Shown: piece by piece, positions 2,047 to 64,000 of the stretch
Numbering within the stretch: the first letter of the stretch is position 1
Layout of the letters: every line of letters starts with the position of its first letter
Position numbers and translations under genes: made by a program
Source of the DNA: Escherichia phage vB-Eco-KMB38
Sequence record: OR525701.1
Direction: 5' to 3' (one strand)
DNA: 64,000 nucleotides
The notes under the pieces: model-generated
What the model saw: the letters and a program-made list of their open reading frames with translations, nothing else
Told to the model about the DNA's origin: nothing
Database searches by the model: none

Positions 2047-2531
2047 ATATACGCTTTCCAAGTTCCTGTTTTAAATGTTGATATTACGCGTTTCGCGCGA
2101 TTGGGTGTCTGACGATACCATTTAGATTGGGCTAGATTTACTGCCGCTTCGTCCCAACGTTTCTGTTGAAGCATACGAAGAGAATTAGTAAAACCGGCGA
2201 CGCCTGCTACACCCATTTGGAAGACCATATTGACCAATGCACAACGACGAACCGCATCTAAAGAATCGTATACCGGTTTAAGTTTAGCATTACCCAAGAT
2301 TCCGCGAACGGCTTTATCAACGTCTTCATTAAATAGCTTTTCAGCCTCATCAAGGGTAATTGGACCGTTGCATTTACGGCCGATCATTCTGTCAAGTTCA
2401 GCTTTAGCTACGGCTAAAGATGGGTTCTTTGTTACTAAATGGCCTATGCCAATCGTCCAAAAGCCTTCAGTGTCTTTGTATAAAGTCAGTCTAAGACCTT
2501 CGTCATTACGAAGCATTTCAAATATATTCAT
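2043..2531 (-). CDS. e: Lysozyme (endolysin, T4 e)
   Basis: [32 protein letters not shown]... near-identical in pattern to T4 lysozyme; GGAGG RBS directly upstream of the MNIFEML start. Confidence 0.95.
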
Positions 2532-2565
2532 AATACCTCCCACGTTTATAGGAGGTATTTATTAC

Positions 2566-3024
2566 TTATAGGAGGGTAGTGAGCACCTTATATAATGATT
2601 TGCCCATTACATATTCCCATTGAGAAGGTTTAATTAAAGCGAATGCATCAAATTCAGGAATCTGACGTCCGTCCGGGAATGTATGATAGGAATTACAAAC
2701 ACTATTTCTGAATTGCTCGTGCTCTACAGGGATGGTATATAGGAACAGGTGAATATTCTTATTGTCTGAGTAATGATGTTCACCTAGGTCTTTCAGGAAG
2801 GCAGGGTCATATTGTGTAAACCCAGTTTCTTCTTCGCATTCACGAATAGCGGCTTCGATAGGAGATTCGCCGGGCTCGACACGACCTTTAGGAATATCCC
2901 ACCGATGAGCTAAAGAACCTTTAGGACGAGAACCAGTTACACGCCCCATGAATAATTCTTTATCTTCGGTAAGGAAAATAATACCAGCTGATAGTTCTTT
3001 CACTTTATTTTTCTTACTCATCAT
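2566..3024 (-). CDS. nudE: Nudix hydrolase
   Basis: Nudix box GRVEPGESPIEAAIRECEEETG; position immediately upstream of e as in T4 (e.1); start uncertain by 1-5 codons. Confidence 0.85.
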   Translation of the reverse strand: MMSKKNKVKELSAGIIFLTEDKELFMGRVTGSRPKGSLAHRWDIPKGRVEPGESPIEAAIRECEEETGFTQYDPAFLKDLGEHHYSDNKNIHLFLYTIPVEHEQFRNSVCNSYHTFPDGRQIPEFDAFALIKPSQWEYVMGKSLYKVLTTLL

Positions 3025-3512
3025 CTCAAATTCCTGCATTCAGTAATAAAACGTTCAACTTCATTATTCTTGGCCTTTATCTTGGCTTTATGTTCTTGTA
3101 AACTACTTTTAATAAGATTAATAATGATGGCGGCGGTACCGCCGCCAATGATGCCACCAACACCACTTATGATACTAGATGCTAATAAGATAGCAATAAT
3201 ATCAACAAAACCGAAAGAACTCACCTTAGTACTGAAAAACCATATAGACGGTGCAAATATAATCCATCCTGTTATCCATTGACACTTATTGAAAAACTTT
3301 TCAAGCTCAGCTTGAGTTGTTCGTATTACTTCATCGATAGGTTGATATCCATTAATGTATCTGTTCACGATAATACCTGCTGGCTGGTCGATTTTAAATG
3401 CTTGACAATGGCGTTTCACTAAGTATGATGGACATCCTGTCCAATCTATAGAATAATATGAAATACCTTCGTCGCCATCGTCCATGTTTGTCCAGTGAAT
3501 TTTATGTATCAT
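3021..3512 (-). CDS. Hypothetical membrane protein (C-terminal TM segment, tail ERFITECRNLR)
   Basis: ORF with hydrophobic stretch IIAILLASSIISGVGGIIGGGTAAIII; no recognised homologue. Confidence 0.5.
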   Translation of the reverse strand: MIHKIHWTNMDDGDEGISYYSIDWTGCPSYLVKRHCQAFKIDQPAGIIVNRYINGYQPIDEVIRTTQAELEKFFNKCQWITGWIIFAPSIWFFSTKVSSFGFVDIIAILLASSIISGVGGIIGGGTAAIIINLIKSSLQEHKAKIKAKNNEVERFITECRNLR

Positions 3513-4198
3513 TACCAGCCTTCCATAGGGAATTCCAGATAAACTTGGGCGTTGACACGAATTTCATTGGTAATCTTTTTAACTCGGTCTGTATTACGAG
3601 ATACACGTCCGAACCAACGCCATCCATTACTAATTGCACGAGAACCAGTGTGCCATGTTTGCCAATCAAACTGAAGAAGAGTACGATCTGGAGCTTCCCA
3701 TTTCTCTAGTTCGCCTTTTTCGATTTTTTCGAGGACTTCTTTGTGCCACTGGCGATAGATAAGTTCGCCATCAGGAATCTGACTGAACTCTGCAGTTCCT
3801 GTTGCAAAATGAGTAGGACACACATCAGCGTTAACAAGACCAAGAATATGTTCAGAATGGTAACGAGGGTTGTCATAATCAGGTTGTCCTGCAGTAATAA
3901 AGTGTTGACCTACCGGAATATCAGGGCGTGGTACATCGTCATGGTGATAACCTGGGATAGCAGGGTACCAACCAGGCATCAGCATGTGGACTCGTGAATC
4001 AAATACAACCTGGTCGGTGTTCCAATCATCAGGCAAGTTCATGATGAAGCTGCGAGTAATAGGACCGCCGTTATTATAAGCAAATTCTAAACTACAGTTA
4101 AAGAACATAGGCTCGTTCTTGATTTTATCATTAGAAATACCGCCGGCAAAACCACCTACTGCACGAGCTTGACTATTAAACACTTTAGAACTATTCAT
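3512..4198 (-). CDS. Hypothetical protein (228 aa)
   Basis: Long uninterrupted ORF; start codon adjacent to stop of upstream gene; function not recognised. Confidence 0.55.
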   Translation of the reverse strand: MNSSKVFNSQARAVGGFAGGISNDKIKNEPMFFNCSLEFAYNNGGPITRSFIMNLPDDWNTDQVVFDSRVHMLMPGWYPAIPGYHHDDVPRPDIPVGQHFITAGQPDYDNPRYHSEHILGLVNADVCPTHFATGTAEFSQIPDGELIYRQWHKEVLEKIEKGELEKWEAPDRTLLQFDWQTWHTGSRAISNGWRWFGRVSRNTDRVKKITNEIRVNAQVYLEFPMEGW

Positions 4199-4199
4199 A

Positions 4200-4505
4200 T
4201 TATTTTCCTCGACATTCTTTAATGAAATTTTCTAGATTGGTAGATTCAATAGCTTTTTTACGAGCTTCTGCGTGTTCTTCTTCAGACAATTTACGTTTAT
4301 AATTGACCCAGACATTATGGTCGAAACCAGTCGTGGCATATAATATCAATGCTCCAACGAATAGCAAAAACGGCGATAAGAATACAAAACCAGGAACACC
4401 ATCCATATCGTAAGCCTTTTGTAATACTGCAACAGAAAGAGCTACGTAAAAAGGTGATGCAAGTATTGTTAAAAGACCAATTCGGTTGGTTTCTGTTAAT
4501 TTCAT
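4200..4505 (-). CDS. Hypothetical small membrane protein
   Basis: Two hydrophobic helices; GAGGAG RBS; C-terminal ENFIKECRGK; downstream of PeSL promoter. Confidence 0.55.
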   Translation of the reverse strand: MKLTETNRIGLLTILASPFYVALSVAVLQKAYDMDGVPGFVFLSPFLLFVGALILYATTGFDHNVWVNYKRKLSEEEHAEARKKAIESTNLENFIKECRGK

Positions 4506-4520
4506 AATATTCTCCTCAAG

Positions 4521-4562
4521 TTGATAGGACTACTATAACATAGTCCTATAATTGTGTAAACA
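4521..4562 (-). promoter_or_regulatory. PeSL-type early promoter cassette (GTTTAC -35, extended -10 TGTTATAGT inside 10-bp inverted repeat)
   Basis: Plus strand gataggactactataacatagtcctataattgtgtaaac; near-identical copies at 5816 and 12439. Confidence 0.6.
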
Positions 4563-4573
4563 GTTTTGTGAAG

Positions 4574-5530
4574 TTATTTGAAAGGTTTTACCATATGGAA
4601 ATTTTGTTTGAAACGTTTGACGTAATCGTCATGTCCTAAGCGTTGGTACATACTTACAACTTTGCTGTAGTTTTCCCAGGCGTATTCACGGAACCAACCG
4701 GAGGTGATGCTTGTGCAAACTTTTTCTAATGCCATCATGAAACTGGCTTCAGAGTTAATTTCAAAGTTATTAGGAATCTGAGAACGTTCTAATGCTAGTA
4801 CACATGATTCTTCATATACACCGGCCAATTTGACCATTTCTGGTAACGATTCGAACTTCTCGCGTGAGGTCATGACTTCAGAACCATCTTTCATGTAAAA
4901 TGTATAAGCCGGACGGTCTGTTAGTGCAATGGCTTCGTGAATAGTATCATGGTCATATGTGTAGATGTCATCTTTAAAGAATGCGCTTTTAGAAGTGTCA
5001 AGAATCGGGTGAGCATAGTTCAAGGTTTCTTTCTGGCGTTTCAGCATAATTTCAGTAAGTTCATCGTTCAGTGTAACACCTTTACCACGAAGATACTGGA
5101 TATGGTTCATAGTCTTTAAAAAGAATGGATTATTTTTCTTGAAACGATGAGACATTTTAATTGCAAGACATATCTCAGGAGTTGCCCAGTAAAACCCGGT
5201 CAAACGATCTTTAGTCAAATTTTTCTTGGCGTATTTTAAAAGGTCATAAGAAGACGTGAAATCTTCAGGAGTGAGTTCACCGACTAATTCACGAACATTA
5301 GTGATTGCCGGAACAATATATGCTTCAAAATGAGTTTCGCGTCCATTATGGAAGCATTTGAAAACTTGGACATCAGGGTTATCTTGGTGAACATATACAC
5401 CCATCATTTGATTTTTGAATGCATTCCAAGAACCTTGGTCCGCAATAAAGTCCCAATCGCTATTTTTGATAGCGCTAGAATCAATAAGACCATGATAGTG
5501 AAGTGCACGAGAACCAATAACTAACATCAT
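4574..5530 (-). CDS. Hypothetical protein (318 aa)
   Basis: Long ORF with GAGGAAAATATT RBS; no recognised family. Confidence 0.55.
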   Translation of the reverse strand: MMLVIGSRALHYHGLIDSSAIKNSDWDFIADQGSWNAFKNQMMGVYVHQDNPDVQVFKCFHNGRETHFEAYIVPAITNVRELVGELTPEDFTSSYDLLKYAKKNLTKDRLTGFYWATPEICLAIKMSHRFKKNNPFFLKTMNHIQYLRGKGVTLNDELTEIMLKRQKETLNYAHPILDTSKSAFFKDDIYTYDHDTIHEAIALTDRPAYTFYMKDGSEVMTSREKFESLPEMVKLAGVYEESCVLALERSQIPNNFEINSEASFMMALEKVCTSITSGWFREYAWENYSKVVSMYQRLGHDDYVKRFKQNFHMVKPFK

Positions 5531-5558
5531 AATATTTTCCTCGGATTAATTCATCAAC

Positions 5559-5810
5559 TTAAATTTCACGACATGCGATATTATATTCATCCCATAGGTC
5601 ATCATGTGAAGCCTCTACCAATGGAACGATTGTACCGTTTATGTCTTCATTATAAGGGCAAATTGTACAGTGCGCATCTTCGAATCGGATGCCTTTGTGT
5701 TCAGATTTTTTATAACGCATATCGAATAACTTTGCAAACTTTTCACGAGTAATAGTTTTAGCAACTACTTCGGTTCCAATACTTTCGTAATAAATCATTG
5801 TGGACTCCAT
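5559..5810 (-). CDS. Hypothetical small protein with Cys/His cluster
   Basis: 83 aa, HCTICPYNEDING...H suggests possible metal binding; PeSL promoter directly upstream. Confidence 0.5.
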   Translation of the reverse strand: MESTMIYYESIGTEVVAKTITREKFAKLFDMRYKKSEHKGIRFEDAHCTICPYNEDINGTIVPLVEASHDDLWDEYNIACREI

Positions 5811-5815
5811 TTAAT

Positions 5816-5857
5816 TTGATAGGACTACTATAACATAGCCCTATCTTGTTGTAAACT
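5816..5857 (-). promoter_or_regulatory. PeSL-type early promoter cassette
   Basis: gataggactactataacatagccctatcttgttgtaaac, repeat of the element at 4521. Confidence 0.6.
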
Positions 5858-5860
5858 GTT

Positions 5861-6058
5861 TTAGCAAGAATAACTAGACGATACCCAGCCTTGAACAGTA
5901 ATGCTATTATTAGATAATGAGATTGCGTTCTGGAGATTCAGACCTGCGTTATCTTCAATCCATAATGTAACTTCTTCGCGTTCTTCTGTTGCAATTTGGA
6001 ACAGGTTTTCCAGGGCAGCTACTGCCGTACGTACAGCACAATCTAATTCACGAGACAT
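5861..6058 (-). CDS. Small protein, paralogue family member (ends GWVSSSYSC)
   Basis: 65 aa; shares C-terminal W-x-S-S-S-x-x-C motif with the next two genes. Confidence 0.5.
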   Translation of the reverse strand: MSRELDCAVRTAVAALENLFQIATEEREEVTLWIEDNAGLNLQNAISLSNNSITVQGWVSSSYSC

Positions 6059-6067
6059 ATGGTTTCC

Positions 6068-6340
6068 TTAGCAAGTGTGAGAAGATGCGATCCAACCACC
6101 AGTTTCGAGGCTCAGGTTGTAGTCGTATTGGTAAACGTCAGCCCATTCAGCATAGCCGTTTTTTGTACAACGTTCAAGATCGGCTTTAAGCTGTCCGGGT
6201 GAATGATATGTTCCACCCATACCATAAGCTGGATACAAGTCGAATGTTGTGTTTTGTTTATCAGCAATTTCTTTGGCAGCCTCAATAGCTGCATAGATTT
6301 TTGCTACAGCTTCAGCCAGTTCGGTTTGTTCTTTAGACAT
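6068..6340 (-). CDS. Small protein, paralogue family member (ends GGWIASSHTC)
   Basis: 90 aa; N-terminus MSKEQ; conserved C-terminal motif followed by TAAGGAA RBS of next gene. Confidence 0.5.
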   Translation of the reverse strand: MSKEQTELAEAVAKIYAAIEAAKEIADKQNTTFDLYPAYGMGGTYHSPGQLKADLERCTKNGYAEWADVYQYDYNLSLETGGWIASSHTC

Positions 6341-6349
6341 AATGATTCC

Positions 6350-6655
6350 TTAGCACAACGCAGAAGACGAAACCCAAGCACCTTCAGTAATAACGTAACC
6401 ATTACCTTCACGCTTAACATCGCCACCATTATTTTCAATTTCATCTTTCATCCACTGGGATACGATTTCACCCTTAGGATAATAAGTACGACCGCTACCA
6501 TAATCACCTACAGAAAATGATACAGAATATTGGTCTGCGATCTTTGTTGCTTCTTCTTCGATACGTTCAGCTTGATTCAGAAGTTTATAAATTGCATCTG
6601 AAGCGGATTTGGCATCATTAAACTCTGGTACTTTAATTTCAATAATCTTACTCAT
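6350..6655 (-). CDS. Small protein, paralogue family member (ends GAWVSSSALC)
   Basis: 101 aa; N-terminus MSKI; same C-terminal motif. Confidence 0.5.
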   Translation of the reverse strand: MSKIIEIKVPEFNDAKSASDAIYKLLNQAERIEEEATKIADQYSVSFSVGDYGSGRTYYPKGEIVSQWMKDEIENNGGDVKREGNGYVITEGAWVSSSALC

Positions 6656-7011
6656 TTTCTACATTCCTTAATAAAGTTTTCTATTGTTTCATTTTCACGT
6701 CTAGCTAGGAGTTCATTATAACTAATCATTTGAGAAGCGTAAACCTTTTTATTTTTCTTGTTATGGTTTATAAAATCGTAGTAAAAATAGACTACAGTAC
6801 AAAAGGATGCGATGGATGCAAAGGCTTGGGTATACCGTAAGTCCTGCCATTGGTCTGTGAATCCACCAGTGTTCCCTATAAATCCTAACACAACGCCGTC
6901 AATAAGAAATCCAACTAATCCAAAGGCAAATCCCATGCCAATACTCATAATAAAAATTAGAATGTTCTCACCAAGAGAAGGCCATACGGTTAAGAGTTGA
7001 GGTTTTTGCAT
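6652..7011 (-). CDS. Hypothetical membrane protein
   Basis: Hydrophobic segments; AAGGAAAT RBS; C-terminal IENFIKECRK. Confidence 0.55.
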   Translation of the reverse strand: MQKPQLLTVWPSLGENILIFIMSIGMGFAFGLVGFLIDGVVLGFIGNTGGFTDQWQDLRYTQAFASIASFCTVVYFYYDFINHNKKNKKVYASQMISYNELLARRENETIENFIKECRK

Positions 7012-7385
7012 CTTATTTCCTTAACGAATTCCATAGCTTCTTCATATTCATACTTTTTAACAGCTTCATCATACTGAGCTTGGGCTTTTGCGCACTGAAC
7101 TTTCCACTCGCGAACTCGAGCTCTGTGATGACGGCCTTGGTGCCAATATCCTGCCCAATTAATAGGCATTAATAAAAACGGTACAATAAGTGGTGCGACG
7201 AACATTAATGAAAACGCTGCATCAGACGATATAACTTTATTGGAATCTAAAATAGCTCCTATAATCATAAAGATTAAAAATGCTAAAGCTAAAATAGGGC
7301 CAAATAGTACTTCGTTTGGGATTAATTTACGTTTGTATTCGTATGCCCATGGCTTAATTGGCATGTACAGGGTTGGCTTTGACAT
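6990..7385 (-). CDS. Hypothetical membrane protein
   Basis: ORF-track start at 7415 is TTG; first ATG gives MSKPTLYMPIK; two hydrophobic helices; C-terminal EFVKEIRCK. Confidence 0.5.
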   Translation of the reverse strand: MSKPTLYMPIKPWAYEYKRKLIPNEVLFGPILALAFLIFMIIGAILDSNKVISSDAAFSLMFVAPLIVPFLLMPINWAGYWHQGRHHRARVREWKVQCAKAQAQYDEAVKKYEYEEAMEFVKEIRCKNLNS

Positions 7386-12438: not shown

Positions 12439-12478
12439 TGATAGGACTACTATAACATAGTCCTATCGTGTTGTAAAC
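12439..12478 (-). promoter_or_regulatory. PeSL-type early promoter cassette
   Basis: gataggactactataacatagtcctatcgtgttgtaaac, third copy of the 4521 element. Confidence 0.6.
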
Positions 12479-58858: not shown

Positions 58859-59968
58859 ATGATTAGTGTAAAAGAAATAGTAGTAGATGCAAAGGATTTA
58901 AATAAAGCAATCCCAGTCTCAGAAAGTGCTGGGCAAAGCACTAAAACCGAAACAACTACTAAAACTTATGTTGCTCAATTTCCTACAGGAAGAGCAGCCG
59001 GAAATGACTCCACAGGAGACTTCCAGGTAACAGACCTTTATAAGAATGGATTATTATTTACCGCGTACAATATGTCTGCACGCGATTCAGGATCCCTCAG
59101 GAATTTACGTCCTGCATACGCCGGGACTTCATCCAATGGTATCATATCAGATTTAACTGATAATGTGAAAGATGCAGTGACTAAATTCTCAAATGGATTG
59201 CTTCCTGCTGGAGCTAATAAATCTACCATAAATAAAACTCCTGTTGCCAATATCCTGTTGCCACGTTCCAAATCTGACGTTGATACAACTTCACATCGTT
59301 TTAATGATATCGGTGATAGTCTTATTACTAAAGGTGGAGGTACTGCTACGGGTGTTTTAAGTAACATTGCTTCTACTGCAGTCTTTGGTGCATTAGATTC
59401 TATTACCCAGGGGCTTATGGCTGATAATAACGAACAGATTTATACGACTTCTCGTAGTATGTATGGTGGTGCCGAGAACCGTACTAAAGTCTTTACATGG
59501 GATTTAACTCCACGTTCAACTGAAGACCTTATGGCTATTATAAACATTTACCAGTATTTTAACTATTTCTCATATGGTGAGACCGGTAAATCACAGTACG
59601 CCCAAGAGATTAAAAGTTATTTAGACGAATGGTACCGTTCAACGTTTATTGAGCCTATGACCCCAGACGATGCTGTAAAAAATAAGACATTGTTTGAAAA
59701 GATTACTGCGTCATTAACAAACGTATTAGTTGTAAGCAACCCTACGATTTGGATGGTTAAAAACTTTGGACACACATCTAAATTTGACGGGTTAACTGAT
59801 GTATTTGGCCCATGTCAAATTCAAAGCGTACGTTTTGATAAAACTCCAAATGGACAATTTAATGGTCTTGCTGTTGCTCCTAACTTACCGTCAACATTTA
59901 CGTTAGAGGTAACAATGCGAGAAATTATTACATTAAACCGTTCTTCACTTTATGCGGGGACTTTCTAA
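58859..59968 (+). CDS. 48: gp48 baseplate-tail tube junction protein
   Basis: 369 aa; synteny. Confidence 0.9.
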   Translation: MISVKEIVVDAKDLNKAIPVSESAGQSTKTETTTKTYVAQFPTGRAAGNDSTGDFQVTDLYKNGLLFTAYNMSARDSGSLRNLRPAYAGTSSNGIISDLTDNVKDAVTKFSNGLLPAGANKSTINKTPVANILLPRSKSDVDTTSHRFNDIGDSLITKGGGTATGVLSNIASTAVFGALDSITQGLMADNNEQIYTTSRSMYGGAENRTKVFTWDLTPRSTEDLMAIINIYQYFNYFSYGETGKSQYAQEIKSYLDEWYRSTFIEPMTPDDAVKNKTLFEKITASLTNVLVVSNPTIWMVKNFGHTSKFDGLTDVFGPCQIQSVRFDKTPNGQFNGLAVAPNLPSTFTLEVTMREIITLNRSSLYAGTF

Positions 59969-60930
59969 TGTACTCTTTAGAAGAATTTAATAACCAAGCT
60001 ATAAATGCAGATTTCCAACGAAACAATATGTTTAGTTGTGTATTTGCTACTACACCGTCGACTAAATCATCTTCACTAATTTCGTCAATTGGTAGTTTTG
60101 CTTATAATAACTTAGGGTTGGATTCAGATTGGCTAGGATTGACTCAAGGTGATATCAATCAGGGCGTTACAACCCTGATTACAGCAGGAACACAGAAATT
60201 AATTCGAAAATCAGGTGTAAGTAAATATCTGATTGGAGCAATGAGTCAACGTACGGTACAAAGCTTGTTAGGTGAGTTCACAGTAGGAGCTTATCTGATA
60301 GACTTCTTCAATATGGCATATAATAATACAGGTTTAATGATTTATTCTGTAAAAATGCCTGAGAACCGATTATCTTATGAAACGGATTTCAACTATAACT
60401 CACCGAACATCCGAATTACCGGTCGAGAAATGGACCCGTTAGTAATAAGCTTTAGAATGGATTCCGAAGCATCCAACTTTAGAGCAATGCAGGACTGGGT
60501 AAACTCAGTCCAAGACCCTGTAACAGGTCTTCGCGCTTTACCACAAGACGTCGAAGCAGATATTCAGGTTAATTTACATGCACGAAATGGTTTACCGCAT
60601 ACCGCTGTCATGTTCACCGGATGTATTCCTGTTAGTGTCTCTTCTCCTGAGTTAACGTATGATGGTGATAATCAGATAACAGTTTTTGACGTAACATTTG
60701 CTTATCGCGTTATGCAATCAGGTGCTGTAAATAGACAGGCTGCTTTAGAGTGGTTGGAATCAGGACTTATTAGTAGTGTTTCAGGAATGTTTGGAAATAA
60801 TCAGAATGATTCTGGTCTAGGAAGTGCAGTATCAAGACTTTCTAGATTAGGTGGGACCGCCGGAGGTGTGTCTAATATAAACACATTGACAGGTGTGGTG
60901 AATTCTACATCAAGAGTTTTAGGACTATAA
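59968..60930 (+). CDS. 54: gp54 baseplate-tail tube initiator
   Basis: 320 aa; synteny. Confidence 0.9.
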   Translation: MYSLEEFNNQAINADFQRNNMFSCVFATTPSTKSSSLISSIGSFAYNNLGLDSDWLGLTQGDINQGVTTLITAGTQKLIRKSGVSKYLIGAMSQRTVQSLLGEFTVGAYLIDFFNMAYNNTGLMIYSVKMPENRLSYETDFNYNSPNIRITGREMDPLVISFRMDSEASNFRAMQDWVNSVQDPVTGLRALPQDVEADIQVNLHARNGLPHTAVMFTGCIPVSVSSPELTYDGDNQITVFDVTFAYRVMQSGAVNRQAALEWLESGLISSVSGMFGNNQNDSGLGSAVSRLSRLGGTAGGVSNINTLTGVVNSTSRVLGL

Positions 60931-60960
60931 GAAAAAGGGAGACGTTGTCTCCCTTTAGGG
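60931..60960. terminator. Stem-loop/terminator between gene 54 and the convergent minus-strand gene
   Basis: A-run, gggagacgttgtctccc hairpin, ttt. Confidence 0.5.
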
Positions 60961-60962
60961 GT

Positions 60963-61295
60963 TTATTTACGGAATGAAAGGAATGCTGGTGCTCGGAATG
61001 GAGTATCATCTTTAGAGTATTTAACTAATACGACCATTGGTACCTCTGTTTCTAAATGTCCTGTCAATACACCGATAAAAATTTGATCAGTGTGCTCAGG
61101 GTCACGAAAGTTTTTAAGAGGTTCCATAGCAATATGGAATGCACCTGGGAATACTCGATTCAATTCGTCAATCACAGCTTCGTTAAAAACATCATCCGCT
61201 GGGATAACATCTTCAACTACTAGTTCTTGACCATTAAAGCGAAGCATAGATTTCATAACGTTTTCCTCATGTTGTTGATAGGATGATAGTATCAC
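60963..61295 (-). CDS. Hypothetical protein (110 aa) at the alt.-3 position
   Basis: ORF with GAGGAAAACG RBS and own early promoter. Confidence 0.55.
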   Translation of the reverse strand: MILSSYQQHEENVMKSMLRFNGQELVVEDVIPADDVFNEAVIDELNRVFPGAFHIAMEPLKNFRDPEHTDQIFIGVLTGHLETEVPMVVLVKYSKDDTPFRAPAFLSFRK

Positions 61296-61316
61296 ACATC
61301 CATGTGTTTGTAAACT
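61276..61316 (-). promoter_or_regulatory. PeSL-type early promoter cassette
   Basis: Minus-strand sense GTTTACAAACACATGGATGTGTGATACTATCATCCTATCAAC. Confidence 0.55.
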
Positions 61317-63402
61317 ATCCTTGGAAAAATTTAAACGGAACTGATTCTAAATCCATTAAAGATGCTAACAATTCCAAACCTTTAGGTGCACTAGTTTTTT
61401 CTACAAATGAGGAGAACGATACCAGCTCATCAGATTCGATTTCACCCGTCATAGCGACCACCTCGCCTGTTTCCATGAGAACATCACCATCGTAAATGAC
61501 AGCTTCATCTAACTGGTCTGAAGACATGACTTCAGCTTGAATAAATTTAAGGTTGGATTCTAAACCTGCACCAGTGTCAGATGACGCATCTGTAATTTTA
61601 TTTATCTGCAAGAGAATGCCTCTAGGCAAAATAATTTCTTGCTCATTAGGGTGATTACTCAACTGTCCTGGATAAATCACGTTAACTTTATGGGCGCCAT
61701 CAATAGCCCATCCAACGTTAACACGGATTTGTTCTGGCGCATGCATAGCTGTTCTTACTTGACTAGGAGAAATAGTAACACCTTCGTCATTATTGTCAAT
61801 GTTAAGCTCTTTGCGAACTTCTTCAGGAGCAAGTCCAAGGGCAACGTTCTCTTTAAACCCACCGAAAATAATAGGAGCTAGTGAAGTGGAAACATAGTTT
61901 CTGAAGTAGAATACCTTATTTTTAACCATTGCTTCGTAAATAGGCATTCTGATAGACTGAGCTCTATATAACGTTAGACCTTCAGGTAAACGATCTCCAT
62001 TTAAAAACGCCGAATCAAGACCATCAATAGCGCGTTTAACTTCATCTTCATCTGCAACATCGTAAAAATCTGGTTTATAACGACCTAACAACATATTATT
62101 GATATCTGTATATGCAGAAGAGGCATATTCACGAATAGCTCGTTTTTCAGCAACAGAGTATTGTTTAGGGTCACGATTCATTGTTATATTAAAGGTGCCT
62201 CTAGCTGATTCTCGTGCATAAGTATACATCACATTAGACAAGAACGCTGATTTACGTTGTTTCCAAGTTCTTTCAGATACTTCAGCTAAAACGTCGTCAG
62301 GCAGTTGGAAATTATCACGTCTAAAATCTTCAAACCATTCGTCTTTAATAGAGTCTGCAATTTCATTTGCAGCTTCAACAAAAGCAGCTAATGCTTTAAC
62401 AGATGTTGTTTTTTCGGTTTTAATTTTCTTAGCAAACTTTTCTAAAGTCGGCTTAATAACACTACCATAAGAAACTTCATCGGCAAATTTAAAGGATTCA
62501 TCAATACGATTATAAATCTTATTTTCGATATCAGCAACTAAAGTGCCTTTTGCTGTGGACGATGCTTGGGCTAGTACGATTTCATATGCTTCAGGAAGTA
62601 ATTCGGCTGTAGCCGGGCCACTAACTTCTTTAGCAGAATTTTCGTATTTCTGGAATAACTCACCTTCTTGACGGTCAGCTTCTAAAGATTGACTTGCTGC
62701 AATAGCACGACGAGAAATTTTAGTGCGAGCAATAACAGGCTTATCTTTACGTTTTTCTTCTACCGCGGCAATAGAACCAGCGATAGCCGTTTCTTTGGTG
62801 ACCTTTTCACCGGTCTTTTTACTCACATAAACTTCGCCAACATCAGAATCTACTTTCGTGTACAACTCTGTGTTAATGTTAGGGATGCCTTTAATATCTT
62901 CAATGTTGGCATTTTTACGAACCATCATCACATAGGTGTGTTTACCTGTGAATTGATACATTGCCGACAATACTTTAAAACGACCACCGGTTTTAGTAGA
63001 AACTAAACGAGCAAGAAGAGTTTGAAGCTGCTGTCCACGTCCTTTCAATTTCTTGGTAGGGAATCTGAACAGAACCGCATCCATACGAAGAGCTTTAACC
63101 TGTTCATATACTGTATTGAAAATGGTGTTGATTGCATCAATAGGAGCAGGACCAAGGCCGTTTTTCAATTCAGCGAGATTACCCTTTTCAGACAGACTCA
63201 TAATAACAACATGGGCATATTTGTCGCCAAGTTTAACTTGTTTTACAGCATCGCCTTCAGAAAGGTAAGAGAATAAGCGAACTACGATGTTTGTATCGAT
63301 ATCACCAATTTTCCAGACTTGTGGAACTTTAGCTTTAGGGTTCAAATTGACGACAGGAAGACTGCCTTCAGATTCAAACACTTCATTTAATTGTTCAGAC
63401 AT
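61315..63402 (-). CDS. alt: Alt mono-ADP-ribosyltransferase (packaged, injected)
   Basis: 695 aa; size and position between gene 54 and DNA ligase as in T4. Confidence 0.85.
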   Translation of the reverse strand: MSEQLNEVFESEGSLPVVNLNPKAKVPQVWKIGDIDTNIVVRLFSYLSEGDAVKQVKLGDKYAHVVIMSLSEKGNLAELKNGLGPAPIDAINTIFNTVYEQVKALRMDAVLFRFPTKKLKGRGQQLQTLLARLVSTKTGGRFKVLSAMYQFTGKHTYVMMVRKNANIEDIKGIPNINTELYTKVDSDVGEVYVSKKTGEKVTKETAIAGSIAAVEEKRKDKPVIARTKISRRAIAASQSLEADRQEGELFQKYENSAKEVSGPATAELLPEAYEIVLAQASSTAKGTLVADIENKIYNRIDESFKFADEVSYGSVIKPTLEKFAKKIKTEKTTSVKALAAFVEAANEIADSIKDEWFEDFRRDNFQLPDDVLAEVSERTWKQRKSAFLSNVMYTYARESARGTFNITMNRDPKQYSVAEKRAIREYASSAYTDINNMLLGRYKPDFYDVADEDEVKRAIDGLDSAFLNGDRLPEGLTLYRAQSIRMPIYEAMVKNKVFYFRNYVSTSLAPIIFGGFKENVALGLAPEEVRKELNIDNNDEGVTISPSQVRTAMHAPEQIRVNVGWAIDGAHKVNVIYPGQLSNHPNEQEIILPRGILLQINKITDASSDTGAGLESNLKFIQAEVMSSDQLDEAVIYDGDVLMETGEVVAMTGEIESDELVSFSSFVEKTSAPKGLELLASLMDLESVPFKFFQG

Positions 63403-63457
63403 AGTGTTTTCCTTTTAGTAATAATTTATATTTATGCCAAAAAGAGCCCGAAGGCTC

Positions 63458-63667
63458 TTAATCCACAATCGGGAGCAAAGTACGATAAACTTCAAAATTA
63501 GGGCCTTTTTCATACCCATCAACGTTATCTACGAAAACCCGATACGAATTTTCATTAGGAAAATCTAATATAATCTGAGAGCAAGAGGTGGAAACATCTC
63601 CACCATCCTTCTTAGCTACAATAACTGTTTCTAAATAAGCTTTCATTATAAACCTGTCTGGGACCAC
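63458..63667 (-). CDS. Hypothetical small protein (69 aa)
   Basis: ORF between ligase and alt. Confidence 0.45.
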   Translation of the reverse strand: MVPDRFIMKAYLETVIVAKKDGGDVSTSCSQIILDFPNENSYRVFVDNVDGYEKGPNFEVYRTLLPIVD

Positions 63668-64000
63668 GGTCCAAATACATCTTCAAACGAATCCGCTTCT
63701 GTTTTATCAAAACGGAACCCTTTAATAATTGGAAGGAAAATACCTACAGTACCTTCACGGCCTTTAGAATGAACCCAACCATTACATTCACAATCAGCGA
63801 TACGTCCAATTAATTTACCTTCACGAGCTTCGGCCATTAATCGTTCACGGTCTAAATCATGACGCTCGTCTAAAGGAATAAGAACCTTTACACCGTCAAC
63901 TGTTTTATGAGTTGTATCTTTAAAACCTGAACCACAATCGGTTGTAATACGACGACAACGTGATACGAGTTCGACACCACCTAATTTGTTAGGGACTTTA
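63646..64000 (-). CDS. 30: DNA ligase, C-terminal part (gene continues beyond window end)
   Basis: Open frame runs to the window edge; C-terminal ...FRFDKTEADSFEDVFGPWSQTGL resembles the T4 DNA ligase terminus; position after alt. Confidence 0.7.
   Translation of the reverse strand, partial: KVPNKLGGVELVSRCRRITTDCGSGFKDTTHKTVDGVKVLIPLDERHDLDRERLMAEAREGKLIGRIADCECNGWVHSKGREGTVGIFLPIIKGFRFDKTEADSFEDVFGPWSQTGL

Follow-up and report, generated by a model that had tools for sequence, protein, structure and literature searches.

The last few kilobases of a 64,000-nucleotide stretch of DNA from Escherichia phage vB-Eco-KMB38 (sequence record OR525701.1; "the window" below means this whole stretch) carry alt, the gene for an ADP-ribosyltransferase (ART), between two small genes, alt.1 and alt.-3. 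All three lie on the minus strand, where the order of transcription is the end of gene 30 (DNA ligase), alt.1, alt and alt.-3; the plus strand before this region carries the baseplate genes 48 and 54. The 3.2 kb around alt are 100% identical to Escherichia phage PTK and 99.9% identical to AlbertHofmann (both from Mosigvirus, the RB69-like T-even phages), and each of 150 phage records matches 80% or more of those 3.2 kb at 95-100% identity within one alignment. We read the region as an ordinary, conserved alt locus of an RB69-like Mosigvirus, with three minus-strand neighbor genes that are separately expressed, and put the probability of this reading at about 0.88. An earlier note had suggested instead that small cassette-borne genes flank alt and that their products may be early effectors acting together with Alt. 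The gene models, orthology, synteny and regulatory motifs on which our reading draws are demonstrated in the present analysis.

The alt gene occupies 61315..63402 (minus strand). The 695-aa reading frame pointed out in the earlier note is a real gene, with a full-length match to phrog_802 (residues 1-694, E = 1.9e-261) and a match to the ADP-ribosyltransferase domain model PF03496, ADPrib_exo_Tox (residues 413-610, 61573..62166, minus strand; E = 6.5e-28, 97.8 bits against a cut-off of 23.4). The protein and T4 Alt are collinear all the way from Met1 to the C-terminal QG, including the N-terminal part of about 400 residues, at 42-43% identity, and in the pairwise alignment R480, S505-T506-S507 and E587-x-E589 are invariant. 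By homology with T4, it should be a mono-ADP-ribosyltransferase that is packaged and injected. The observation that it is slightly longer than T4 Alt is also correct, at 695 versus 682 aa. Misassignment of the start codon was considered as the source of these 13 additional residues and rejected: the initial Met residues of the two proteins are aligned, so that the start codon is correctly assigned, and the proteins differ by internal indels, the largest of them an 11-residue segment, RTAMHAPEQIR (aa 550-560; 61723..61755, minus strand), that falls opposite a gap in T4 Alt. When nine Alts are aligned (T4, two from RB6, two from JS10, and one each from Klebsiella phage EI, Enterobacter phage KMB20, Salmonella phage SEA1 and the window), residues are present in this segment in seven of the eight others, T4 Alt alone being without it, and the lengths of the family members other than T4 range from 685 to 714 aa. 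Judging from this alignment, T4 Alt is the length outlier and the one that carries a deletion, while the Alt of the window is typical.

The N-terminus contains a likely prohead-protease cleavage site, LNE|VF (aa 5-9; 63376..63390, minus strand), where MSEQLNE|VF of the window aligns with MELITE|LF of T4 in a shared L/I-x-E context. The annotation of T4 record X15811 states "6 amino acids cleaved off" post-translationally, and trimming of Alt by the prohead protease is likely in the window phage as well. The annotated Alt start in Enterobacter phage KMB20 (about 2839..2886) seems to be 15 codons too short, as an in-frame upstream ATG after GAGGA gives MNEFQLNEVFDADSE… and restores the conserved LNEVF N-terminus. 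On the opposite strand, within the alt coding region (63105..63182, plus strand), there is a match to the mir-465 precursor of Rfam (25.5 bits against a gathering score of 65, E = 0.048) that is almost certainly due to chance; a scan of 60000-64000 against Rfam returned nothing beyond this sub-threshold hit.

Among the Alts compared, the nearest to that of the window is AltA of JS10 (57% identity), the first of two tandem paralogues. The window has a single alt copy; two tandem full-length paralogues occur in RB6, in JS10 and in Aeromonas phage L9-6. In T4, alt.-1 and alt.-2 (2066..2451, compared with 4383..6440 of RB6 and 4320..6443 of JS10) look like the remnant of a second alt copy, the 3' end of alt.-2, AAAAGTTCAAAATGTAG, being the same as the end of RB6_192, AAAAAGTTCAAAATGTAG (…KKFKM*), save for one base. 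Over most of its first ~250 residues T4 Alt is the same as RB6 Alt, and beyond them the two diverge, a pattern that suggests a mosaic protein.

Downstream of alt, the earlier note had drawn a 110-aa open reading frame (ORF) at 60963..61295. This frame is an over-extension to a GTG (61295-61293) that sits inside the spacer of the promoter which the note itself gave to this frame; since the GTG lies between the -35 and -10 elements, the 110-aa frame cannot be translated from that promoter's transcript. The real gene is the orthologue of T4 alt.-3 (60963..61256, minus strand; 97 aa, isoelectric point (pI) 4.9), whose start codon is the ATG at 61256, preceded by GAGGA at a distance of 7 nt, exactly as annotated in PTK and AlbertHofmann. 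Its product matches PF17602 (DUF5498) over residues 1-97 (E = 6.5e-25, 87.9 bits against a cut-off of 27), belongs to phrog_1739, and is 52% identical to T4 Alt.-3 (97 versus 96 aa). The relatives of Alt.-3 are 93-112 aa long. A search for homologues with the single sequence gave one protein, and a profile search gave more; an exhaustive profile search of 1.84 billion proteins yielded just 22 representative clusters, almost all of them stand-alone proteins of ~96 aa, the three long matches consisting of multiple short stretches and being apparently spurious. The AlphaFold2 (AF2) model of Alt.-3, built from a 34-sequence alignment, has a mean predicted local distance difference test score (pLDDT) of 95.3 and runs in the order beta-beta-alpha-beta-alpha-beta-beta. 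Members of the family end in F-x-x-F-R-K directly before the stop codon (60963..60983 in the window); both F and the R are invariant and the K is found in more than 90% of the 34 sequences. Read-through of the alt.-3 stop in the window would append TPKGRQRLPFSYSPKTLDVEF… to this end.

A similar correction applies upstream of alt. The 69-aa ORF of the earlier note (63458..63667) is over-extended to a GTG inside the ligase gene, and the real gene, the alt.1 orthologue (63458..63646, minus strand), encodes 62 aa (pI 4.5), again in agreement with the annotation in PTK and AlbertHofmann. Its ATG at 63646 overlaps the stop codon of gene 30 as TAATG. Over its whole length the protein matches PF24647, "Phage blade protein" (Phage_blade; E = 4e-29, 100.9 bits against a cut-off of 27), and it also falls in phrog_1976; identity to T4 Alt.1 is 63%. 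A literature search on "phage blade protein" and PF24647 found nothing relevant. The AF2 model (37-sequence alignment, pLDDT 94.3) consists of two long strands, a helix and a closing hairpin.

Among Mosigviruses that are otherwise 96-100% identical, alt.1 forms a sharply bounded hotspot of divergence. The base-by-base comparison of the 3.2 kb with LF82-35 and G2469 is gapless, and the nucleotide divergence from two relatives is 14.3% and 8.5% in alt.1 (63458..63646 of the window against 3501..3689 of both relatives' loci), 2.0-2.6% in alt and 1.0-1.4% in alt.-3. The ratio of nonsynonymous to synonymous codon changes is higher in alt.1 as well (10:13 versus 9:45), and the altered amino acids are concentrated at positions 31-44, in the predicted helix. 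The hotspot could reflect allele exchange or diversifying selection.

The signals around these genes divide the locus into three transcription units: ligase with alt.1, alt, and alt.-3. The first unit is closed by an intrinsic terminator at 63439..63457 (minus strand), GAGCC-TTCG-GGCTC followed by TTTTT, which has a folding energy of -10.5 kcal/mol (z = -2.8); T4, JS10, KMB20, SEA1 and RB6 retain the hairpin with altered stem bases, and the G2469 record marks it as a terminator. For alt.1 itself there is no separate promoter. Between this terminator and alt lies an element resembling a late promoter (63423..63436, minus strand), in which CATAAATA overlaps TATAAATT, each with 7/8 matches to TATAAATA; the full stretch reads CATAAATATAAATT. 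At the homologous position upstream of alt, T4, RB6, KMB20 and SEA1 have TATAAATA, and JS10 and EI have CATAAATA. From these motifs, the element in the window is the probable late promoter of alt.

The third unit begins at a T4-type early promoter (61286..61315, minus strand), GTTTACA-N12-TGTG-A-TACTAT, with its -35 hexamer at 61314-61309 and a TG-extended -10 hexamer at 61291-61286; the alt stop codon TAG and the promoter share a base, the G that ends the one and opens the other. The combination of a -35 element with a TGn-extended -10 has been described for T4 early promoters (PMC2988021). The window has 11 occurrences of the pattern GTTTACA-N12-TGTG-N-TAnnnT, with two or fewer mismatches, where 0.84 would be expected; 10 of them are on the minus strand, and three, among them the alt.-3 site, match perfectly. 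The motif is conserved before alt.-3 in 7/7 genomes compared. Beyond alt.-3, a terminator scan places a hairpin at 60934..60956, in the 32-bp gap before the convergent gene 54 (59968..60930, plus strand), which encodes the baseplate tail-tube initiator and is annotated in both PTK and AlbertHofmann. Scored on the minus strand, this terminator is a 10-bp hairpin plus T-run of -12.8 kcal/mol (z = -3.8). Equivalent hairpins are present in all genomes compared, the one in G2469 being annotated as a terminator, and we infer that gene 54 shares it with alt.-3. At the other end of the locus, the 3' part of gene 30 (63646..64000, minus strand; ATP-dependent DNA ligase) extends past the edge of the window, with a stop-free frame over 63646..63999; the ligase is annotated in AlbertHofmann (5847..7340 of its locus). 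A split ligase gene, to which a 63-aa ORF in the ORF list had seemed to point, was rejected, as the frame stays open all the way to the end of the window and the 63-aa entry arises from that edge.

Tequatrovirus, Dhakavirus, Mosigvirus, Karamvirus and Gelderlandvirus share the order 30 - alt.1 - alt - alt.-3 -> <- 54, and Klebsiella phage EI (Marfavirus) has 30 - alt - alt.-3 -> <- 54, without alt.1 (genomes compared: T4 and RB6 for Tequatrovirus, JS10 for Dhakavirus, KMB20 for Karamvirus, SEA1 for Gelderlandvirus, and EI). Across genera, Alt.-3 and Alt.1 retain 33-63% protein identity. In a tblastn search of 50,697 phage records, Alt is found in 1221, Alt.-3 in 835 and Alt.1 in 729, most of the Alt.1 matches lying under the annotations "hypothetical protein | DNA ligase". 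The Acinetobacter, Aeromonas and Krischvirus phages examined encode Alt without either small gene: in Aeromonas L9-6 the two alt genes abut gene 54, and in Krischvirus phiS two unrelated ORFs follow alt. In Acinetobacter phage Octan (Twarogvirinae), alt (2477..4558) is inverted relative to the enterobacterial layout; it lies directly behind gene 54 on the same strand and converges on the ligase gene, and both alt.1 and alt.-3 are missing.

The temporal classes, the biochemistry of Alt and the finding that alt.-3 is dispensable come from the work of others on T4, and their transfer to the window phage is by analogy. Time-course omics of T4 place alt among the late genes, with the Alt protein part of the virion (PMC9697503). 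According to the supplementary tables of the same study, alt.-3 has early RNA and early protein, and alt.1 pairs early RNA with middle protein, as do gene 30, 30.1 and 30.2 (PMC9697503). The detection of both small T4 orthologues as proteins means that the small genes are real and expressed, a point on which the earlier note had left itself open to refutation. The T4 classes further indicate that the small proteins are made after infection, in classes other than that of Alt; by analogy, Alt.-3 and Alt.1 of the window phage would be produced in the infected cell rather than carried in the virion. The suggestion that these neighbors are co-functioning early effectors is thus not borne out: in T4 each of the three genes falls in a temporal class of its own, and the difference in timing, together with the occurrence of Alt without the small genes in other lineages, argues against obligate joint function.

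A sequence of events for the window phage can be proposed along the same lines. The alt.1 gene would be the last cistron of an early/middle DNA-ligase unit, with the TAATG overlap coupling its translation to that of gene 30 and the intrinsic terminator ending the unit. The alt gene would be transcribed late, from the TATAAATA-like element, and its product, if it behaves as in T4, would be cut by the prohead protease at the N-terminal L-x-E, enter the head and be injected together with the DNA. T4 Alt is injected and modifies Arg265 of the RNA polymerase alpha subunit (PMC2988021); likewise, injected Alt of the window phage may mono-ADP-ribosylate Arg265 of one alpha subunit plus other host proteins, favoring phage early promoters. 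Immediately after infection alt.-3 would be transcribed from its strong T4-type early promoter, presumably exactly the type favored by the Alt-modified polymerase, and transcription would stop at the terminator before gene 54.

Several points weigh against the reading of the locus as three separately expressed genes with T4-like roles. Timing, packaging and cleavage are carried over from T4, whose Alt is 42-43% identical. No exact TATAAATA is found upstream of alt, while the window holds 18 exact copies, all elsewhere. There is no terminator between alt and alt.-3, so late read-through could yield late Alt.-3 and hence, possibly, a virion-associated fraction. Finally, neither structure nor sequence reveals a relative of known function for Alt.-3 or Alt.1, which leaves any statement about their role weak. 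Sequence searches of Protein Data Bank (PDB) chains with Alt, Alt.-3 and Alt.1 gave no match, nor did a search of NCBIfam; none of the PADLOC defense models resembles any of the three at E values up to 10, and no similarity to CmdA or CmdT is detectable in that search. Foldseek comparison of the Alt.-3 and Alt.1 AF2 models to PDB gave best E values of 0.23 and 0.35, with template modeling (TM) scores of 0.26-0.39 and nothing meaningful, and comparison of Alt.-3 to BFVD returned uncharacterized T4-like phage proteins alone.

The sole functional data on the Alt.-3 family concern its C-terminal end, which makes the conserved C-terminal motif worth notice. T4 escapes the CmdTAC defense through mutations that extend the C-terminus of Alt.-3 to 110 or 117 aa (Vassallo et al., Nature 2024, PMC11618068). 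With these extra 14 or 21 residues the protein becomes an inhibitor of CmdA degradation: extended Alt.-3, but not the wild-type protein, blocks the ClpP-dependent degradation of the antitoxin CmdA (PMC11618068). T4 lacking alt.-3 is viable, and the wild-type protein is described as "uncharacterized" (PMC11618068). T4 Alt.-3 has a documented one-mutation route to anti-CmdTAC activity. Our best guess, made with low confidence, is that early interaction with the host is the task of Alt.-3 and Alt.1 and that both are dispensable. The invariant F-x-x-F-R-K end of Alt.-3 is probably functionally important, and it is plausible, again at low confidence, that the conserved tail is a docking element. 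An unlikely idea is that DUF5498 proteins are native early modulators of a host proteolysis or defense pathway, acting via the C-terminal F-x-x-F-R-K. In this view the one-step extensions in T4 could mean that wild-type Alt.-3 already docks near the ClpP machinery that degrades CmdA, and if it were true the Mosigvirus allele of Alt.-3 may differ in specificity. In a weaker variant of that idea, the variable helix of Alt.1 (aa 31-44) may mark a host-interaction surface under diversifying selection.

Alt.-3 might instead be a dedicated partner of Alt, such as an immunity-like or regulatory protein, by comparison with the antitoxins encoded beside ART toxins. A partnership would account for the constant place of alt.-3 just after the last alt copy: in each of the six enterobacterial genera examined it comes directly after alt or after the second paralogue, in the same orientation, and in the window its promoter abuts the alt stop. 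Alt.-3 is also made early, while injected Alt is active, and the T4 protein with a C-terminal extension stabilizes CmdA, which is itself the antitoxin of an ART toxin. The partnership fits poorly with the distribution of the two proteins, Alt occurring in 1221 records against 835 for Alt.-3; no gene of the size of alt.-3 is annotated beside alt in the Acinetobacter, Aeromonas and Krischvirus loci examined. Nor does the genetics of T4 favor it, since wild-type Alt.-3 has no effect on CmdTA and phage without alt.-3 are viable, and Alt.-3 is unlike any PADLOC defense model even at E values up to 10. We regard a dedicated partnership as quite improbable.

Another alternative is the one raised by the earlier note, that the small ORFs are mobile PeSL (promoter-early stem-loop) cassettes that landed beside alt and encode effectors acting with Alt or injected alongside it. 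PeSLs combine an early promoter with a stable stem-loop that works as a terminator or attenuator and lies within or beside the promoter, mostly between the -35 and -10 elements, and they flank ORFans and mediate ORFan gain and loss (Arbiol et al. 2010, Comeau et al. 2014). Of the PeSL promoter claimed for the downstream gene, the strong early promoter stands and the stem-loop does not. The spacer contains the palindrome ACACAT-GG-ATGTGT, with a loop of 2 nt, which is outside the minimum-energy fold and is followed by no U-tract; the 35-nt promoter element folds at -3.9 kcal/mol, no more stably than its shuffled versions (z = +0.70; 147 of 200 shuffles fold at least as well). The corresponding value for T4 is z = +0.19, and SEA1 alone, the best case at z = -1.9, comes near significance. 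The spacer can form hairpins of 6-7 bp in JS10, EI, KMB20 and SEA1 (-6.3 to -8.3 kcal/mol), which favors the cassette proposal, but their registers vary from genus to genus, so that a single covarying hairpin had to be dropped, and the complementarity is partly inherent in the promoter consensus (ACA in the -35 element, TGTG before the -10).

The early appearance of T4 Alt.-3 and the divergence hotspot at alt.1, if it reflects allele exchange, could also be taken in favor of mobile cassettes. Other evidence goes the other way. No presence/absence variation of alt.-3 or alt.1 is seen in the 150 close relatives, and synteny is fixed across six genera; alt.1 is promoterless, overlaps the ligase stop and is coupled to the ligase gene; the three genes fall into different T4 temporal classes; and Alt of Acinetobacter, Aeromonas and Krischvirus phages occurs with neither small gene. 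That the small genes are cassette-borne is not supported on this evidence, and the proposal, very improbable as it now stands, is largely refuted. Elsewhere in the window, the early promoters at 4532..4561, 5827..5856 and 12449..12478 (minus strand) share a nearly identical palindromic spacer (…ATAGGRCTATGTTATAGT), and going by their sequences these three repeats look like better PeSL candidates than the alt.-3 promoter. That the small ORFs are chance open frames in intergenic DNA has next to no probability and is already refuted: they are short, and as first drawn they start at GTG without a ribosome-binding site, but they belong to Pfam and PHROG families at E values of 1e-25 to 1e-39, conserve 33-63% protein identity across genera, yield AF2 models with pLDDT of 94-95, and have T4 orthologues that are both detected as proteins.

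The locus, read as an ordinary Mosigvirus alt region, is already known, in that its sequence is deposited, each gene has a named T4 counterpart, and the layout of promoters and terminators is as in T4. The useful outcome of this analysis lies in corrections: gene models of 97 and 62 aa rather than 110 and 69, T4 Alt as the length outlier, and three differently timed transcription units in place of co-acting cassettes. What Alt.-3 and Alt.1 do is a general T4 question, not specific to the window, and it is the thread that remains: both proteins are conserved, expressed and confidently folded, and have no structural relative of known function.

Set beside known systems, the alt.-3 region resembles PeSL cassettes in having a strong sigma-70 early promoter before a small gene, followed by a terminator. 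It differs from them in having no significant stem-loop and no indel polymorphism, in encoding a conserved syntenic orthologue rather than an ORFan, and in lying at a core-gene boundary rather than in a hyperplastic region. Alt.-3 of T4 (NP_049808), like that of the window, is the product of the last gene before the convergent gene 54, is preceded by an early promoter and ends in F-x-S-F-R-K before the stop; unlike in the window, where the promoter abuts the alt stop, alt.-1 and alt.-2 intervene between alt and alt.-3 in T4. Alt.1 of T4 (NP_049812) also has 62 aa, an overlap with the ligase stop, and a terminator and then the alt late promoter (a probable one in the window) downstream, although the overlap is ATGA in T4 and TAATG in the window, and residues 31-44 are variable among Mosigviruses. 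T4 Alt (gpAlt, NP_049811) differs from Alt of the window in its sequence (42-43% identity), in being without the 11-residue segment, and in having the alt.-1/alt.-2 remnants beside its gene. The two agree in their start codon, in the C-terminal ART domain with its catalytic R / S-T-S / E-x-E residues, in the N-terminal L/I-x-E, in the C-terminal KF(V/F)QG, in the place of the gene between genes 30 and 54, and probably in having a late promoter upstream.

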